DNA of 24,000 bases from Rhodobacteraceae bacterium UBA2553 (GTDB lineage: Bacteria > Pseudomonadota > Alphaproteobacteria > Rhodobacterales > Rhodobacteraceae), in NCBI GenBank assembly GCA_002340515.1, contig DDMF01000117.1, positions 8,088 through 32,087 on the forward strand, read 5' to 3'. The notes beneath the pieces are model-generated. The model ran no database searches and was not told the origin of the DNA. It saw only the letters and a program-made list of their open reading frames with translations. Both the position numbers and the translations under genes were made by a program. Shown here one piece after another: positions 387 through 20,554 of this stretch. Within the stretch, counting starts at the first letter, position 1. Every line of letters starts with the position of its first letter.

Positions 387-570
387 ATTAAACACTCCAG
401 ATGTTGCCGTCAATTTGACGTATTTCTGACGTCATTATGCACTAGGTTCATCAATACTTCAACTATTCACTACATGAGATGGCTACGTATTCACGGGGTG
501 GTAGAGTAATCTATTGACCAAGTCAGCAGGTCATTATATGAGACTCCGAAGACTTCTTCAGGGGTAGCCC

Positions 571-930
571 ATGTTTGATAACCGAGACAAATTGATTGAA
601 TTCGTTGACAGTCTTTCTGATGAGGCTCGGCTAAGCATAGCTGAAATAGCGGATCAACTTGGCGAGAAAAAAAATACGGTTAGTGGTTGGCTTAGCGATG
701 AGCGTAATTATCCCCCCTCTCATCGTGGGGCAAGAAACCAAAAGTTTTATGATAAGAATGTGATAACGCAACTCTTGCTCGTCTACTTTGCCAATAGGCA
801 ACCAGGTATTACTGTGCAGGTTAATCATGCTTATGATCGCATTTCTAGAAATGGTATCGGTGCTAGCCTAGAAGCATTGCGGAGCAGTTCAGGGGATTTC
901 TTCAATGTGCTCCAGAATCAGGACGCATAA
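571..930 (+). CDS. Hypothetical protein with probable helix-turn-helix
   Basis: 119-aa ORF with AGGGG upstream of the ATG. LSIAEIADQLGEKKNTVSGWL looks like an HTH. Possible TTGACC (514-519) -35 element upstream. Confidence 0.55.
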   Translation: MFDNRDKLIEFVDSLSDEARLSIAEIADQLGEKKNTVSGWLSDERNYPPSHRGARNQKFYDKNVITQLLLVYFANRQPGITVQVNHAYDRISRNGIGASLEALRSSSGDFFNVLQNQDA

Positions 931-2849: not shown

Positions 2850-3239
2850 ATGAACGGGCAACCGGCCATTGTACTTATGGAGCACGAGCTTCAACACATG
2901 CTGACCGAAACGGCAAAGCAAGCTGCTAAAGAGGTCATTTCAGAATTTAAATCTGAGCTTCAAACTGATCAGAAAGAAGTGATCACGCGGAAGCTGCGGG
3001 CTTATATCGAAGATCGCAGCACAATATCCGACCCACGCACAGAGTGGGCGAATGGTCTGCATATCCGCAGCATCAAACTGAATGGGCGGGACAAACCACG
3101 ATCTCAATCTTGGCTCCAACAGTTTAAAGTGAATAGTGGGCTGAGGGAATGCATTTTCCGAAAATCTAGAACGACTGGCGGTAATCAAGAATGGTGTTTT
3201 GAGGATATCGCCAATGCGTGGGAGGTCGTTCAGTTTTAA
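2850..3239 (+). CDS. Hypothetical protein (129 aa)
   Basis: ATG at 2850 is preceded by TAGGGGGA. The longer 2697 start would read through the terminators. I recognise no family. Confidence 0.5.
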   Translation: MNGQPAIVLMEHELQHMLTETAKQAAKEVISEFKSELQTDQKEVITRKLRAYIEDRSTISDPRTEWANGLHIRSIKLNGRDKPRSQSWLQQFKVNSGLRECIFRKSRTTGGNQEWCFEDIANAWEVVQF

Positions 3240-10926: not shown

Positions 10927-11169
10927 ATGCGTATCATAAGTGGGTTTTTCACAATCGGGATCGGTTGTCTTGTCATGATGTTTGGGATCGTGCTGGGGTT
11001 CACAATCATTGGATTGCTCTGGGCGTTTCCTGTGGCGATTTCGGGTTACGGTCTCATGCTCAAGGGCTTTGCCGATATTGGCATTGGGACATATCAGGCT
11101 GTTAAGAACACGGGCAGCGGGCAGGGCAAAAATGACAGCTCAACCCCGAAACAGTATCGAGATCTGTAG
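10927..11169 (+). CDS. Small membrane protein (2 predicted TM segments)
   Basis: CAGGAG lies upstream of the ATG. Hydrophobic stretches FFTIGIGCLVMMFGIVLGFTIIGLLWAFPVAISGYGLML. A GCACGA-TCA-TCGTGC hairpin follows at 11179-11193. Confidence 0.6.
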   Translation: MRIISGFFTIGIGCLVMMFGIVLGFTIIGLLWAFPVAISGYGLMLKGFADIGIGTYQAVKNTGSGQGKNDSSTPKQYRDL

Positions 11170-11178
11170 TCTTTTCCT

Positions 11179-11984
11179 GCACGATCATCGTGCGCGGGTT
11201 CCAAACCCCTTTGGAACCTTGCCACGTGGCGAACGCGGGGGAAACAAGGACATGGGCGGGGCGGAGATTATTTTGCCTCGCGAGGAATGTCGCCTGAATG
11301 AAAATTCAGGTGGCAGGGGACAATAATCTTTGGCACGGGCGCTTGCGCTTCTACCCCTTGGCCGCGCGAGGGGCAGCGCCCCTGAGGCTGCACAACTGTG
11401 TTGTGAGTGCGGGAACCGCACTTGGGGAGGAGCGTTCGCTCCGTGGGGTATCCCCGATGGTCGCAGACCATAAACGGCAACGCCACGAGTGGCAGAGCCG
11501 TCACTACATTAAAGTAGTGACGGCGCGCGCTTGACCACAGTCACCGCCATCTCTGAATGAAAGTGACAAGTGATGGGCAAGTGACGCCATATACCCACAT
11601 CATTTTTGATCATTTCGTGGCTGGATAAATTGCCTTTGTTTAGAATGAACCTCTTCACGGAAAGGACTGATTTATCGCTCCTTTCCTGAGACATCATCAC
11701 CATTTCACAAGGAGAAACTTCATGATCACTGATCATCTTAAGCCGCCCTGATGGCGGCGTTAGCGACACACTCTGACAAGATGTCAGACCTCGTCACATC
11801 ATCATTGTGGCACAACCTCTGAAATCCCGCCTCCGGGCGTATTTCTGCCCATTGGGGCAACAGACAGGAGCGCCAAGGGCGCTCGCCCGTCTGGGTCAAT
11901 TCCCGCATTGCGGACCGTCCAGCCTGAGGGCTGCCGGTTGACCAACAACACTTAGCAAACTGAAAACAATAGAAAGAAAAGGGG
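11179..11984 (+). other. About 0.8 kb noncoding, GC-rich, hairpin-dense region upstream of the recombinase gene (candidate att/oriT/regulatory RNA region)
   Basis: No credible ORF. Perfect stems at 11197-11218 (9 bp), 11293-11310 (7 bp, GAAA loop), 11369-11383, 11406-11422, 11457-11471, 11498-11523 (10 bp), 11742-11758, 11772-11788 and 11868-11884. AAGTGAY occurs three times, at 11561, 11568 and 11579. Confidence 0.55.
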
Positions 11985-12872
11985 ATGGATAATCTCTCAA
12001 TGGATTTGGTGCGTCTCACCAAGCGTAACCGTGATGGCTCTTTTGGCACGCAAAAGAACCGTCAGCGGGGATTAACGGCCATTGCGGCGGAACTAAAACA
12101 ACTTGGTTACACGTTGAAAACAGCGCGATCCGTGAAGCCTAAACATATCAATGCATTGGTGGATCATTGGCGTGATAGCGGGCTGAGCAAAGCGACAATG
12201 CGGAATAGAATGAGCTGGCTGCGGTGGTGGGCGCAGAAGGTGAACAAGGTGTCGATCCTGCACAAAGATAACGCCTGTTATGAGTTGAATGATGAGAGAA
12301 CCGAACGCAACAACATTGCGTTCAATCTGCACTCCGATCAATTGGATGCTCTAACAGATCGACATGTGCAGGCGGCGGTGATGCTGCAAGCCGCCTTTGG
12401 GCTGCGCCGGGAAGAGGCGATGAAAATCATCCCGAAGGAAACCATTCGAAAGGACTGCATCAAGCTCAAAGGGAGCTGGACCAAAGGTGGACGTCCACGC
12501 ACCGTGCCGATCACGTCGCAACATCAGCGCATTGTATTGTCAGCGGTCGCACAAGTCGCGAAACATGGCAGTTTGATCCCTGAAGATCGCAACTATGTGC
12601 AACATATGCGGGTCTATGAGCGGCAGGTTCAAAAGGCAGGTATCACCCGTGCGCATGGTCTTCGTCATAAATATGCACAGACCCGATATGAAAAACTCAC
12701 CGGCATGAAATGTCCCATCAACGGGGGGCCGGGGCGATCTTTGATGTCGGATGAGCAATATGAATTGGACCGTCAGGCGCGGGCGCGGATCTCAAAAGAA
12801 CTTGGCCACAACAGAATTGAGATTGTTGACGTCTACATTGGTCGGCTTTTGCAAGCGGGGGGATTGTCATGA
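11985..12872 (+). CDS. Tyrosine recombinase (resembles the Phage_int_SAM_2/Integrase_1 type, from memory)
   Basis: Catalytic motifs are FGLRREEAMKI (Arg), AHGLRHKYAQ (H-x-x-R), LGHNRIEIVDVYIG (His and Tyr). GGGG lies upstream of the ATG. Confidence 0.8.
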   Translation: MDNLSMDLVRLTKRNRDGSFGTQKNRQRGLTAIAAELKQLGYTLKTARSVKPKHINALVDHWRDSGLSKATMRNRMSWLRWWAQKVNKVSILHKDNACYELNDERTERNNIAFNLHSDQLDALTDRHVQAAVMLQAAFGLRREEAMKIIPKETIRKDCIKLKGSWTKGGRPRTVPITSQHQRIVLSAVAQVAKHGSLIPEDRNYVQHMRVYERQVQKAGITRAHGLRHKYAQTRYEKLTGMKCPINGGPGRSLMSDEQYELDRQARARISKELGHNRIEIVDVYIGRLLQAGGLS

Positions 12873-12979
12873 TCGTAAGCTTGGGCATTATACTTGGTGG
12901 GCTGGTTTGGTTGGTGGTAACGGCAGGGCGGATCGTGCTTCAGGTGATCGTCTGTCTCATGTTGAAGCTCTTCCGCTAA
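12869..12979 (+). CDS. 36-aa hydrophobic peptide, translationally coupled to the recombinase (absent from the ORF track)
   Basis: The ATG overlaps the recombinase TGA (ATGA at 12869-12872). My own translation is MIVSLGIILGGLVWLVVTAGRIVLQVIVCLMLKLFR*, one TM-length hydrophobic helix. Confidence 0.35.
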   Translation: MIVSLGIILGGLVWLVVTAGRIVLQVIVCLMLKLFR

Positions 12980-13077
12980 AGCATAGGTTACATCCATTGG
13001 TGGTGTTTGATATGAATTTGCCACCCTAGGGCTTTCCCCGGGGCATCGCGATGCTCCTCAACATGAGGAGTATTGTG

Positions 13078-13278
13078 ATGAAAATGTTGAGCAAACGGCA
13101 GGTGACGGAGAGGGTTTTGTACTCACCGCAGCACATCGCGCGTCTGGAAGCGGCAGGCAAATTCCCATTGCGGGTAAAGCTGGGCGGCAACCGCGTGGGG
13201 TGGGTGGAAAGTGAAGTGCAGGACTGGCTTCAACAACGCATCGACGCCAGAGATCAACACTCAGCCTCTCTTGTTTGA
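13078..13278 (+). CDS. alpA: AlpA-family excisionase/transcriptional regulator
   Basis: GAGGAG lies 7 nt upstream of ATG 13078. LSKRQVTERVLYSPQHIARLEAAGKFPLRVKLGGNRVGWVESEVQDWL matches the AlpA/MerR-like winged-helix pattern. Confidence 0.8.
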   Translation: MKMLSKRQVTERVLYSPQHIARLEAAGKFPLRVKLGGNRVGWVESEVQDWLQQRIDARDQHSASLV

Positions 13279-13285
13279 GAGCGGG

Positions 13286-13318
13286 AGGATCGCCAGTAAT
13301 GGCGGTCCTTCTCTTTAC
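13286..13318 (+). terminator. Terminator-like hairpin after alpA
   Basis: AGGATCGCC-AGTAAT-GGCGGTCCT (one G-U pair) followed by TCTCTTT. Confidence 0.45.
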
Positions 13319-17383: not shown

Positions 17384-19555
17384 GTGGTGGATAAGCGCTT
17401 TAAACTCGCCGTTGATCTGGGCCGTTTTGTCGGTGGCGGTTTTGCTTCCGCTTACAAAGGCTGGGGTGTTCGTGAGGGGATCTCGCGAGATCTTCGCCAG
17501 GGAATTGCCGATGCAAGGTTCTCTAAAGAACATGAAGCGGCTTTTGAGCTGGGCAAGCAGGTTCGCGCGCAACAGATTGCGGTGGGGATTAAAACGGACG
17601 ATGATCTCTGCGGTTGGGCTGTGCGGGTGGTGGATGCAGCCCTTAAGCTTAATGGTTGGGAGGGTGCTGCCTCGCCGTTCCGCGATCATCTGATCACCTT
17701 CATGGCAGACATGTGCGGTTATGAAGGGTGGCAGAGTATTCCGCCTCTTCCTGATCCCTCATCGCCGCAATCTGAGCTGTGGGCGTGGGAAGACAAGGCA
17801 CGCCAAATCGGGGCTTACTGCGCGGATCATGACAACGCCTCGATCCTGACTGTGCGTTATCTGGCGTCACTGATTGCGCCTTTGGTCAAAGCCTGCCCAA
17901 ACCTGATTGAACCGACTGACATGCAAGGTTCAGATCTCGCCTTTTCTGCCAATCTATCTGACATGATTGATGATATGCCTGCGCTGGTAGAACGGATAAT
18001 CCAGACGACATACGCGCCTGATCTGGAACCGCTTAAGATCTGTCACAACCTGCGCGACCATCTGCACAAGAGCACACTCATTGCCTCAGGGGGATTGCCC
18101 GGCAAAGCTAGCCGGGAACGGCAGCTTAAACTGCCTACCAAAAACAGATCGGTTGAGGCGTCTGAATGCGCGCGGGTCTATCTTGGCGGCACGCCGTTGC
18201 AGAAGCTGCTCAATCATCCGGTGCCGGTGTCTTTGCCCACAGCCACCCGATTTGAGCATATGCACATCGTGGCGGGCAGCGGTCATGGCAAAACCCAAAC
18301 GCTGCAAAGCCTGATCCTGCGGGATCTTGAGGCGGTGGCAAGCGGCGGTGCATCCATCGTGGTCATGGACAGCCAAAGTGATCTGATCAACACCATCGCG
18401 GGGCTTGATATCTTTGCGCCGGGGCAACCTCTAGCAGATCGTTTGGTGCTGATTGATCCAACAGATCTTGAATGGCCGGTTGCACTTAACCTCTTTGATG
18501 CGGGGTTAGAACGGCTAAATCAATATGCGCCCTTGGATCGCGAACGGCTGACCAATTCTATTTTAGAGCTGTATGATTTTGTGCTGGGGTCTTTGCTGGA
18601 TGCGGGCATGACGCAAAAGCAAAATGTGATCTTCCGCTATATCACCCGTTTGTTGCTGCATATTCCGGGGGCGACCATTCATACGCTGCGTGAGCTTTTA
18701 GAAGATGGTGGCGGCGACAAATACCAACCCTACATCAATCAGCTTGAAGGGTCAGCGCGGGCGTTTTTTGAAACGGAGTTCAACGGCAAAGAGTTTGTTG
18801 CCACCAAGCGCCAAGTGGTACGCCGTCTTTATGGGATTTTAGAAAACCAAACGATGGAGCGGATGTTCAGCCATCCCAAAAGCAAGCTGGATCTCTTTGC
18901 TGAGATGAATGCAGGTAAAGTGATCTTGATCAACACCGCCAAAGATCTGCTCAAAGAACAGGGAACTGAAATCTTTGGCCGCTTCTTCATTGCCCTCATT
19001 GCGCAGGCCGCACAGGAACGCGCTGTCCTGCCAAAGGAAGAGCGCACACCAACCTTTGTGTATGTGGATGAAGCCAGCGATTACTTTGACAAGAACGTCG
19101 GGATCATCCTGTCCCAAGCCCGTAAGTACAATGTCGGCATGGTGTTGGCGCATCAGTTTATGGGCCAGCTCGAACCCAGATTACAGGAAGCGATATCCGC
19201 CAATACAGCCATCAAATTTGCAGGTGGCGTGTCCGCCAAAGACGCCCGTGCGCTGGCCAATGATCTGCGCAGTGATGCGACATTCATTACTGAGCAAGCC
19301 AAGCTCAACTTCGCAGCTTTCATCAAAGGGCAAACCAAGCGGGCAATATCAATCAGCATTGCGCCGGGACAAATGGAAAGCTGCCCGCGTATGAGCAGTG
19401 AGGATCGGGCCACCCTGCAAGATGACATGCGTGCAAAATATGCGGTGCATCACTCAAAGCTGCGAGAAGATCCAAAAGGCGATGCCGAAGACGTGCAAGA
19501 CGAAGATCAATCAGAATGGCCGCAGGATGATGGCGCACCGATGCCATGGACTTAG
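17384..19555 (+). CDS. TraD/VirD4/TcpA-like P-loop ATPase (type IV coupling protein-like) lacking N-terminal TM segments
   Basis: Walker A HIVAGSGHGKTQ and Walker B TFVYVDEASDYF, then ARKYNVGMVLAHQFMGQL. The region between the Walker boxes is long and looks helical. GTG start with TAGGGGG upstream. Confidence 0.75.
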   Translation: MVDKRFKLAVDLGRFVGGGFASAYKGWGVREGISRDLRQGIADARFSKEHEAAFELGKQVRAQQIAVGIKTDDDLCGWAVRVVDAALKLNGWEGAASPFRDHLITFMADMCGYEGWQSIPPLPDPSSPQSELWAWEDKARQIGAYCADHDNASILTVRYLASLIAPLVKACPNLIEPTDMQGSDLAFSANLSDMIDDMPALVERIIQTTYAPDLEPLKICHNLRDHLHKSTLIASGGLPGKASRERQLKLPTKNRSVEASECARVYLGGTPLQKLLNHPVPVSLPTATRFEHMHIVAGSGHGKTQTLQSLILRDLEAVASGGASIVVMDSQSDLINTIAGLDIFAPGQPLADRLVLIDPTDLEWPVALNLFDAGLERLNQYAPLDRERLTNSILELYDFVLGSLLDAGMTQKQNVIFRYITRLLLHIPGATIHTLRELLEDGGGDKYQPYINQLEGSARAFFETEFNGKEFVATKRQVVRRLYGILENQTMERMFSHPKSKLDLFAEMNAGKVILINTAKDLLKEQGTEIFGRFFIALIAQAAQERAVLPKEERTPTFVYVDEASDYFDKNVGIILSQARKYNVGMVLAHQFMGQLEPRLQEAISANTAIKFAGGVSAKDARALANDLRSDATFITEQAKLNFAAFIKGQTKRAISISIAPGQMESCPRMSSEDRATLQDDMRAKYAVHHSKLREDPKGDAEDVQDEDQSEWPQDDGAPMPWT

Positions 19556-20334
19556 AGGCGGACAAGCTTGGGCGGCGGAACCGATTTAAACGCACACCGC
19601 GTGGCAAGCGGCTTAGCCTTACGCCCCGCGATCAAGAGATATTACGTTGGCTTTATCGCTATCGATATCTGCGCCAAGATCACCTGATGCGCATCCTCGC
19701 ACCAAGATCTGAAAAGCGCTTCAAAGAACGGCTGGGGGATCTGTTCCACGAAACGGGCCTGATCAATCGTCCCCTGATCCAAGCACCGCTCTTTGATGCC
19801 CGCGCCACGCCCATGCTCTATGAACTGAGCACCAAAGGGGCAGGGTATTTAGAAGCGCTGAATACTCTGCCATACCGTGCGGTCACCTTCTCCCGTCGCC
19901 AGAAAGAAGCTTACAGCCCACAGTTCCTGCACACGATGATGATCATTGAAGCGGTTCTTGAGGTGGAGCTGTCAGCGCAAGCCACAGATGGGCAAAGATT
20001 CGTATCGGTAGATGAGGTTCTATCCCGCGCCCCTGAAACAACCCAACACGCCAAGAATCCCTTGGCCGTGCCAATCAATCTCGATGGGCGTAACACCTAC
20101 ATTATCCCTGATGCACTCTACGGCGTTGAATCTGAACATGATGGCAAAAAGGTCTATCGCTTCTTTGCGCTAGAATGTGAACGCACCAGCCCCGTGTCAC
20201 GATCTAACAGCTTTGCTTCCAGTACCGCCCAAAAGGAAAAAGCATACGCAGCGCTGATTAAAGGCGGTGGGTTCAACAAACACTGGGGTATTCCAAATCT
20301 GGAACTGAACCTCATCCCCCGAAAAGGTCAGTGA
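19546..20334 (+). CDS. Replication-relaxation (Replic_Relax) family protein
   Basis: LTPRDQEILRWLYRYRYLRQDHLMRIL...LYELSTKGAGYLE...HTMMIIEAVLEVEL...IIPDALYGVE...FFALECERTS follows the Replic_Relax pattern. The start overlaps the ATPase stop by 10 nt. Confidence 0.75.
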   Translation: MDLEADKLGRRNRFKRTPRGKRLSLTPRDQEILRWLYRYRYLRQDHLMRILAPRSEKRFKERLGDLFHETGLINRPLIQAPLFDARATPMLYELSTKGAGYLEALNTLPYRAVTFSRRQKEAYSPQFLHTMMIIEAVLEVELSAQATDGQRFVSVDEVLSRAPETTQHAKNPLAVPINLDGRNTYIIPDALYGVESEHDGKKVYRFFALECERTSPVSRSNSFASSTAQKEKAYAALIKGGGFNKHWGIPNLELNLIPRKGQ

Positions 20335-20480: not shown

Positions 20481-20554
20481 TGGAGGCGAGTACCGGAATC
20501 GAACCGGTGTACACGGATTTGCAATCCGCTGCGTCACCACTCCGCCAACTCGCC
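20481..20554 (-). tRNA. tRNA-Cys (anticodon GCA), CCA encoded
   Basis: The reverse complement GGCGAGTTGGCGGAGTGGTGACGCAGCGGATTGCAAATCCGTGTACACCGGTTCGATTCCGGTACTCGCCTCCA folds as a cloverleaf. The acceptor GGCGAGT pairs with ACTCGCC, the T-arm is CCGGT-TCGATTC-CCGG-like, and the anticodon loop is TTGCAAA. Confidence 0.92.

Follow-up and report, generated by a model that had tools for sequence, protein, structure and literature searches.

A three-part non-coding region upstream of a recombinase-like gene in a Rhodobacteraceae island, probably the cis-acting region of its mobilization module

The window analyzed here, a stretch of 24,000 nucleotides from Rhodobacteraceae bacterium UBA2553 (contig DDMF01000117.1, positions 8,088 to 32,087 of the forward strand), contains a non-coding gap at 11170–11984, between an open reading frame (ORF) for a small membrane protein (10927–11169) and the gene of a 295-aa protein (11985–12872). 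A first-pass annotation had described this gap as a hairpin-dense non-coding region of about 800 bp preceding the recombinase of the element, and had proposed for it a cis-acting RNA, a recombinase-associated RNA, or a compound attP/origin of transfer (oriT). We consider it probable that the gap serves a small integrative mobilizable island as the cis-acting region of its mobilization module, and that it is composed of three juxtaposed parts: part A (11196 to about 11495), in which a variable perfect hairpin abuts the invariant sequence TGCCRCGTGGCGAACGYGG; part B (11497–11585), organized around a GTCAC/GTGAC hairpin; and part C (11590–11984), a leader with a short upstream ORF (uORF). These parts and the genes that close the conserved block are as follows.

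11196–11219, plus strand: variable hairpin of part A, with a 10-bp stem and a CCCC loop, ending directly before the motif (from the sequence and 21 outside instances)
11220–11241, plus strand: invariant motif of part A, TGCCACGTGGCGAACGCGG(GGG), proposed to be single-stranded, identical or with at most two base differences across carriers
11242–11495, plus strand: downstream folded domain of part A, with a long hairpin (11265–11329) enclosing 11288–11315, the GGGGCAGCGCCCC hairpin (11370–11382), and small hairpins up to 11495 (from conservation and RNAalifold)
11497–11524, unstranded: part B hairpin GCC-GTCAC-TAC / loop / GTA-GTGAC-GGC, candidate oriT core or binding site (from its recurrence upstream of homologues)
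11540–11585, unstranded: additional half-sites of part B, an inverted GTCAC (11540–11544) and direct GTGAC, GTGAT, and GTGAC (11563–11585) (from the sequence)
11709–11763, plus strand: Shine-Dalgarno sequence AAGGAGA (11709–11715), uORF MITDHLKPP* (11722–11751), and a hairpin (11742–11758) with the stop codon in its loop (from conservation)
11826–11965, plus strand: cluster of five small hairpins just before the ribosome-binding site (from near identity with Leisingera)
11985–12872, plus strand: tyrosine-recombinase-fold gene, MOB_M/MpsA-like candidate relaxase (Pfam PF12834 and PF12835)
13051–13278, plus strand: gene of a small DNA-binding protein of the AlpA family, the last of the conserved block (Pfam PF05930)

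Folding of 11190–11590 far exceeds chance. The predicted RNA fold of this interval has an energy of −194.9 kcal/mol, against −152.5 ± 6.2 kcal/mol for 100 dinucleotide shuffles (z-score −6.9). With DNA parameters the z-score becomes −6.6, and the opposite strand gives −5.8. A repeat search of the region returned seven inverted repeats. The stem-loops and GTGAC motifs listed by the first-pass annotation were recovered: a 9-bp stem GGTTCCAAA/TTTGGAACC at 11197–11218, the hairpin CCTGAAT-GAAA-ATTCAGG at 11293–11310, the stem-loop CCGTCACTAC-ATTAAA-GTAGTGACGG at 11498–11523, and AAGTGAC, AAGTGAT, and AAGTGAC at 11562–11585, with an inverted GTCAC at 11540–11544. This folding, together with the co-conservation of the gap with the downstream gene, bears out the hairpin-dense character that had been reported. 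The same annotation found no credible ORF, and we agree: the overlapping frames of 78–103 aa in the gap have no Pfam match, even at E ≤ 1, and they are not preserved in relatives, where the gap shows many insertions and deletions of lengths not divisible by three. The Rfam scan advised as a check for a structured RNA returned nothing at the gathering threshold for 11170–11984, and only two chance-level matches at E ≤ 10. In the scans of 12 other loci carrying part A, no Rfam family covered the part A unit.

The block 11211–13289, which comprises the gap, the recombinase-like gene, and the gene of the AlpA family, is kept as a unit in two Leisingera-group genomes, whose recombinase-like proteins are 87% and 84% identical to that of the window. 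Homology with these genomes begins exactly at the first hairpin. A paralogous second island with the same layout lies on another contig of the UBA2553 genome. Its lipoprotein and small-membrane-protein genes are 92% identical and its recombinase-like gene 70% identical to those of the window; it has its own GTCAC hairpin and its own uORF, and part A has either diverged there or is missing. On a 17-kb Pseudosulfitobacter plasmid, the homologue is preceded by a gap of 870 nt. Over 250 nt this gap is 72.6% identical to 11210–11460, against only 44% identity for the protein, which indicates stronger constraint on the non-coding DNA than on the protein. Long upstream gaps are the rule for this gene family: they measure 361–1327 nt in four annotated plasmids and about 800 nt on a Francisella plasmid, and about 1.6 kb of unannotated DNA occupies this position on a Gallibacterium plasmid. 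At the protein level, about 15 close relatives share 63–98% identity. The gene is rare in genomes, being found in none of 400 genera of the family, in one of 400 genomes sampled from the class, in one further genome of the genus Leisingera, and in no new case among 400 relatives of that genome. Searching the bacterial family with the DNA of the whole region gave matches of only 23–34 nt, of which three led to the part A motif next to tRNA-Arg genes and the rest were judged to be due to chance.

The part A unit was recognized from a 30-nt piece of the gap that matched three other genera of the family. Its hairpin statistics were computed directly on 21 non-identical instances from other elements. 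In these, a perfect stem of 7–13 bp ends 0–1 nt before the motif; the stem reaches at least 10 bp in 16 of the 21, a length found at 1% of randomly chosen positions in these loci. From one instance to the next the stem sequences are unrelated, the 19-mer motif is almost invariant, and the G-T wobbles of the stems fall on the motif strand only. For the downstream domain, RNAalifold predicted 86 pairs, 11 of them with compensatory changes. The GGGGCAGCGCCCC hairpin follows the motif at a variable distance and is also found in tiny plasmids and phages. GNA-triloop mini-hairpins (GGCCGCAGGCC and GCGAAGC), a type unusually stable in DNA, are frequent inside part A elements. The base before TGCC is a C in 18 of the 21 instances, which therefore places a CTG at the foot of the hairpin. 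CTG is the preferred start triplet of the E. coli primase, and we infer only that this position would fit a primase-type site. Sigma-54, LexA-box, and DnaA-box readings of the 19-mer were ruled out by inspection, and it has no occurrence in the searchable literature other than in unrelated primers.

Identical or with at most two differences, the motif is present in about 110 plasmids, Cereibacter plasmid a, islands adjoining tRNA-Arg genes, Dulem virus 50, inoviruses of the IMG/VR collection, and a microvirus. The 110 or so plasmids belong to Alpha- and Gammaproteobacteria, and in them the unit always lies in unannotated DNA. They include tiny plasmids of 2.5–3 kb with MobV, or RepA plus MliC, as their only annotated genes, and the unit also belongs to a mobV-sul2 module found within large plasmids of E. 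coli and Vibrio. Four inoviruses carry it: a Neisseria-type filamentous phage, with two copies, and three IMG/VR inoviruses encoding Zot, secretin, and TspB according to Pfam. Islands adjoining tRNA-Arg, with differing cargo, carry it in three genera of Rhodobacteraceae, and a second site occurs in the Leisingera genome. These carriers share no protein. A first pattern used on IMG/VR, GGGGTATCCCC..GATGG, gave chance matches only, and a G4-type origin recognizable by sequence was rejected, no G4-group microvirus of the phage collection having matched.

The placement of the unit is strand-specific. In all five single-stranded DNA (ssDNA) phage genomes, the motif lies on the strand that carries nearly all genes, and the gene-sense strand is the packaged strand of Inoviridae- and Microviridae-type phages. 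The 153-kb conjugative MOBF plasmid of Cereibacter has three copies of part A, all on the same strand, opposite to both of its TrwC relaxase genes. According to the rule known from F and R388, the strand opposite to the TrwC gene is the transferred strand.

Several carriers deserve separate mention. On the Cereibacter sphaeroides plasmid (plasmid a, NZ_CP015289), the two TrwC genes, with identical scores, lie at 6.0 and 105.2 kb on the plus strand, and the part A copies at 18.7, 75.6, and 119.4 kb on the minus strand; because two copies lie at similar distances from the two TrwC genes, this arrangement suggests a large internal duplication. In the islands next to tRNA-Arg(ACG), the unit and a conserved, GC-rich, folded stretch of about 200 nt are located about 140 nt downstream of the tRNA, after a conserved histidine-kinase gene. 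The cargo behind it consists of a methylase, GHKL proteins, and a Tn7-like transposon in one genome and of an epimerase in another. A tmRNA or other chromosomal RNA at this place was rejected using Rfam and ARAGORN. The 2719-bp E. coli plasmid pRHB21-C06_3 has two units in opposite orientations, at 731–785 (plus) and 411–479 (minus). This resembles IncQ origins, whose ssiA and ssiB priming sites are paired and oppositely oriented. The microvirus contig (IMG/VR, 4590 nt), which encodes an F capsid protein and a Rep of the ORF2/G2P type, has its unit at 3029–3076 on the minus strand, in an intergenic region and on the gene-sense strand. In Dulem virus 50 (PP511607), the annotated coding sequence (CDS) of the ZOT protein (1–1512) crosses the folded unit (95–148 and beyond), and because this unit is non-coding, the CDS start is probably placed too far upstream. 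The unit is duplicated in this genome at 1803–1856, about 400 nt upstream of an IS110-type transposase gene.

Part A thus combines a covarying structure specific to one strand with a distribution over replicons that have an ssDNA stage, independently of any encoded protein. Because carriers that lack a common protein all pass through ssDNA, and because of the placement of the unit on the strand, part A is most likely a host-recognized signal for priming the complementary strand on ssDNA. Signals of this general kind include the G4-type primase sites (the "G sites" of R1 and R100), the hairpin-and-tail sites ssiA and ssiB of RSF1010, ssoA and ssoU of rolling-circle plasmids, the minus-strand origin of the Ff phages, and the Frpo promoters. 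In rolling-circle plasmids the single-strand origin (sso) precedes the double-strand origin (dso), as the minus origin precedes the plus origin in Ff phages. Part A shares with these signals a strand-specific fold, a hairpin followed by a conserved single-stranded tail, replicons with an ssDNA passage, a location just upstream of a nick region (a proposed one in the window), and occurrence in several same-strand copies on a large conjugative plasmid. Unlike Frpo and ssoA, which have promoter-like hexamers in the stem, the stem of part A contains none. We tentatively propose, without considering it the likelier outcome, that the unit formed by the free-sequence hairpin, TGCCRCGTGGCGAACGYGG, and the GGGGCAGCGCCCC hairpin is an undescribed complementary-strand origin recognized by the host. 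It would be common to Microviridae, Inoviridae, tiny rolling-circle or mobilizable plasmids, large conjugative plasmids, and mobilizable islands of Alpha-, Beta-, and Gammaproteobacteria, and would here lie immediately 5′ of a MOB_M oriT with a newly defined, family-wide GTCAC...GTGAC hairpin. Both this family-wide hairpin and the widely distributed part A unit appear to be new.

The hairpin of part B recurs throughout the family of the downstream protein. We found a GTCAC/GTGAC hairpin 340–735 nt upstream of the homologous gene in 21 of the 25 loci examined, belonging to Rhodobacterales, Rhizobium, an alphaproteobacterium of another family, gammaproteobacterial metagenome-assembled genomes (MAGs), and the Vibrio plasmid pSIO1, as well as to Acinetobacter, Psychrobacter, Avibacterium, Salmonella, and Halioglobus; its range thus extends to the Pasteurellaceae. 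With a strict requirement for perfect pairing, it was present in 13 of the first 18 loci, against none of 18 downstream controls and 2 of 900 shuffles. From the outside inward, it is made up of a variable GC-rich outer stem, the GTCAC and GTGAC boxes, a small number of inner pairs that also vary, and a loop whose length differs widely. Covariation is seen in the outer stem (GCC/GGC, CCCTC/GAGGG, CATGGC/GCCATG, and others), where T-G wobbles fall on the gene strand. At many loci, GTGAY half-sites follow within about 150 nt of the hairpin: three direct and one inverted in the window, with further examples in the paralogous island, the Pseudosulfitobacter plasmid, gammaproteobacterial MAGs, and the Psychrobacter plasmid. 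The GTGAC repeats described as iteron-like by the first-pass annotation are real, and they are a hallmark of the whole downstream protein family.

Since the same boxes occur both in the stem and as direct repeats, the arrangement indicates a protein-binding site, whose constant partner would be the downstream enzyme. Viewed alone, the window sequence looks like a 10-6-10 core site. A core site of the attP, res, lox, or dif type was nevertheless rejected: the distance from GTCAC to GTGAC varies from 9 to 40 nt among relatives, which rules out the fixed crossover spacer of 6–8 bp that such a site requires and makes an attP unlikely. Because the oriT is located upstream of the relaxase gene in both SGI1 and pIGRK, part B is most likely the oriT of the recombinase-like relaxase. 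Upstream of mpsA, an oriT and an essential RNA have been reported (PMC6414798, PMC9299015), and upstream of mobK an oriT (PMC8152469).

The enzyme itself was expected by the first-pass annotation to be the recombinase of the element. The gene is indeed of the tyrosine-recombinase fold, although we do not consider it to be the island integrase but rather a MOB_M/MpsA-like enzyme. The 295-aa protein matches PF12834 (an N-terminal SAM-like domain), PF12835 (54.5 bits for a cut-off of 23), and PF00589. An alignment of 12 homologues shows no variation at R141, K167, H224, R227, H228, H275, and Y284, and because this full catalytic set is invariant, the enzyme is a complete one of the tyrosine-recombinase fold. 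PF12835 serves as the "INT_DTR_like" signature for MpsA in the AtollGen classification (PMC10484663). The residues of SGI1 MpsA are R162, H247, R250, H251, and Y319 (PMC6414798); the window protein agrees with MpsA as reported, both in the HxxRH pattern and in the spacing from R to H. The corresponding class has been named MOB_M and described as the commonest chromosomal relaxase type, often mis-annotated as an integrase (bioRxiv 10.64898/2026.01.13.699239). The window protein is a candidate member, judged by its domains and residues.

The genomic context of the family points in the same direction. The gene family was found on 222 plasmids, 137 of which are typed as non-mobilizable. In pSIO1 and in a Psychrobacter plasmid, a small ORF separates the gene from a downstream coupling-protein gene; in a Pleionea plasmid, the coupling-protein gene comes directly after it. 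All three plasmids are typed as non-mobilizable. In the island of the window, the recombinase-like gene lies mid-island and not at an end, the same island encodes a coupling-protein-like ATPase, and the Replic_Relax protein noticed by the first-pass annotation was confirmed at 19546–20334. No att repeat of the tRNA-Cys gene was found within the window. These further island features are:

17384–20334, plus strand: coupling-protein-like ATPase (17384–19555) and Replic_Relax protein (19546–20334), on the same island (domain matches)
20481–20554, minus strand: tRNA-Cys adjoining the coupling-protein and Replic_Relax genes

Some observations concern the genes next to the enzyme. A 36-codon hydrophobic ORF (12869–12979) overlaps the stop codon of the recombinase-like gene through an ATGA, and ORFs of 73–119 aa occupy this position in pSIO1, Psychrobacter, Rhizobium, Pseudosulfitobacter, and Gallibacterium. 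The Rfam family Trans44_sRNA (RF02649, described from Ruegeria) matches 13044–13263 above its gathering score and coincides there with a 75-aa ORF that matches Phage_AlpA (PF05930). It also matches two other loci (L016, 4058–4326; L054, 2558–2823), and this RNA family may really be the alpA mRNA or coding sequence of this type of island. The 4.9-kb plasmid pSIO1 (NC_006860), which has no annotated Rep gene, carries a PAGEV RNA motif (RF03037, 122 bits) at 348–565; its GTCAC hairpin lies about 0.8 kb, and its MpsA-like gene 1.4 kb, downstream of this motif. An RNA-primed origin of the ColE1 type, considered since pSIO1 lacks a Rep gene, was dropped as most carriers have their own Rep genes.

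Part C appears to be a leader of the enzyme gene. The uORF peptide MITDHLKPP is kept in Leisingera through synonymous changes, is MIMDHLKPP in the second Leisingera-group genome, and MLYQLKPP in the paralogous island. Its two proline codons form the 5′ arm of the stop-codon hairpin, which is retained with differing arms (GCCGCC/GGCGGC, ACCGC/GCGGT, and CGCC/GGCG). Because both the peptide and the hairpin are kept despite base changes, this nine-codon uORF is very probably translated. A Pro-Pro-stop ending is a known context of ribosome pausing. Further downstream, 11826–11965 is the best-conserved stretch of the block between the window and Leisingera, and several of its pairs are compensated in the paralogous island. 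In SGI1, the core of the sgm-sRNA occupies the same position, between oriT and mpsA (PMC9299015), and a trans-acting RNA of the SGI1 kind may be derived from part C.

The whole module is probably a further member of the mobSGI1 kind. The order in mobSGI1 is promoter P5, oriT_SGI1, sgm-sRNA core, mpsA, and mpsB (Kiss et al. 2019, PMC6414798; Nagy et al. 2021, PMC9299015). Both modules have an enzyme of the tyrosine-recombinase fold with an R...HxxRH...Y pattern, preceded directly and on the same strand by 0.5–0.9 kb of GC-rich non-coding DNA rich in inverted repeats. Both show an oriT-type repeat cluster hundreds of bases away from the gene, with conserved structured sequence in between, a small leader ORF with a strong Shine-Dalgarno sequence, and a location on a small integrative mobilizable island. 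They differ in that SGI1 encodes a separate MpsB, whereas the window enzyme has a built-in core-binding-type domain (PF12834), and the next genes of the window are the 36-aa hydrophobic ORF and then alpA, not an mpsB-like gene. The window also has the additional, ssDNA-type part A before the repeats and a Rhodobacteraceae host, and its likeness to SGI1 is one of description, not of sequence alignment. Similar features are found in MobK and the oriT of the Klebsiella plasmid pIGRK and in TcpM of pCW3 (Nowak et al. 2021, PMC8152469), which are MOB_M relaxases: as in the window, the enzymes are recombinase-like, and the oriT, a candidate one in the window, lies in the intergenic region just upstream and has several inverted and direct repeats. 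pIGRK needs a G-rich tract, and runs of G follow the motif in the window. MobK and TcpM, however, lack a core-binding domain and are described as not significantly similar to MpsA in sequence, and oriTs of the pIGRK/pCW3 type, at 151–186 bp, are much shorter than the window region.

The comparisons show conservation, covariation, distribution, strand bias, and the catalytic residues directly; priming, nicking, regulation, and the choice of the transferred strand are inferred. We propose the following mode of action, with the three parts all lying on the strand of the downstream gene. Folded on ssDNA, part A would be read by the host replication machinery, which would start the complementary strand there. 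Part B would be the recognition site, probably the oriT, of the enzyme encoded at 11985–12872. If this enzyme nicks the gene strand, part A would reach the recipient last because it lies just 5′ of the proposed nick region, and one priming event at part A could thus copy the entire transferred strand. Part C would be transcribed as a leader in which the translated uORF and the hairpin cluster probably set the amount of enzyme, and which may yield an SGI1-like RNA. Among the possibilities raised by the first-pass annotation, this composite is closest to a compound oriT; an attP is unlikely, as explained above, and a recombinase-associated guide RNA found no support.

Several observations weigh against this interpretation. 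Alignable relatives of the full region number only four or five, two of them near-identical, and the covariation is thin for the downstream domain of part A and for part C. Membership in MOB_M depends on a Pfam signature and a residue pattern, MpsA having been compared by description only, and the window protein has its own N-terminal core-binding-type domain, unlike MpsA as described. An AlpA gene follows the recombinase-like gene, and AlpA is a common partner of true integrases. The promoter scan of part C revealed no good sigma-70 promoter. Part A is gene-sense in phages wherever this could be judged, as an RNA element would be, and its location 212 nt upstream of mobV in one module could also be that of a MOBV-type nick region.

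Four other explanations were considered. The whole or most of the 800 nt might be one large structured RNA, co-transcribed with the recombinase-like gene as a cis-acting leader or as a precursor similar to the sgm-sRNA. The primary RNA of SGI1, of 650–700 nt, runs through oriT to just upstream of mpsA and has an essential core of about 200 nt (PMC9299015), which provides a precedent. The wobbles of G-U type on the gene strand, the better RNA fold z-score of the plus strand relative to the minus strand, the uORF, which shows that at least part C is transcribed, and the sense-strand position of part A in phages would all suit such an RNA. We nevertheless find this explanation unlikely: unrelated replicons carry part A on its own with no copy of the gene, the genes on either side of it in the Cereibacter plasmid run on the other strand, and what its hosts have in common is an ssDNA stage and not any gene. 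The frequent triloops are of the DNA-type GNA class, Rfam contains no match, and the GTCAC boxes, conserved in sequence and recurring as direct repeats outside the hairpin, argue for protein binding on DNA.

A slightly smaller chance is left to the downstream protein being a true site-specific recombinase, a multimer resolvase or integrase, for which part B would be a res or attP site with GTGAC arm sites and AlpA the directionality factor. Its catalytic set is complete and accompanied by a core-binding-type domain of its own, the half-site occurs both as an inverted repeat and as direct repeats, the enzyme gene has a conserved AlpA gene behind it, and many of the hosts are small plasmids that would gain from multimer resolution. 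What makes a relaxase the better candidate is, besides the 9–40 nt between the boxes, the position of the site 340–735 nt away from the gene and not at its promoter, and the coupling-protein gene found repeatedly behind it. In addition, the site in the window is intact within an integrated island that has other integrase genes, and PF12835 is the signature of MpsA-type relaxases.

We give still less weight to part A being a nick region, either an oriT or a rolling-circle origin, for a relaxase or Rep of the HUH type such as the MobV of the pBBR1 group, in which case it would be an orphan oriT here, hitching on a helper. HUH nick sites classically have just such a layout, a hairpin and then conserved single-stranded sequence; the unit precedes mobV by 212 nt in the mobV-sul2 module and occurs on tiny plasmids with mobV as their only gene, and orphan oriTs are common on islands (bioRxiv 10.64898/2026.01.13.699239). 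However, the replicons concerned have differing initiators or none (RepA-only plasmids, a MOBF plasmid with three dispersed copies, inoviruses, and a microvirus); one MobV plasmid has the unit directed away from mobV, and another has it in both orientations. Three same-strand copies over 150 kb also fit priming better than transfer origins. Finally, there is next to no chance that the region is a decayed protein-coding gene, as its several overlapping frames of 78–103 aa might suggest, since these have no family match and are broken in relatives by non-triplet insertions and deletions, and conservation tracks the hairpins and short motifs, not codons.

If the recombinase-like gene encodes a relaxase and the GTCAC hairpin is its oriT, many plasmids now typed as non-mobilizable and many small islands would be mobilizable, and a simple sequence signature would locate their transfer origins. 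For part A, a priming signal that two unrelated families of ssDNA phages share with plasmids and islands would suggest that hosts start the second strand through one conserved recognition step, which is ill-defined beyond a small number of E. coli model systems. The part A signal would then also be a marker for the transferred or packaged strand of the element that carries it.

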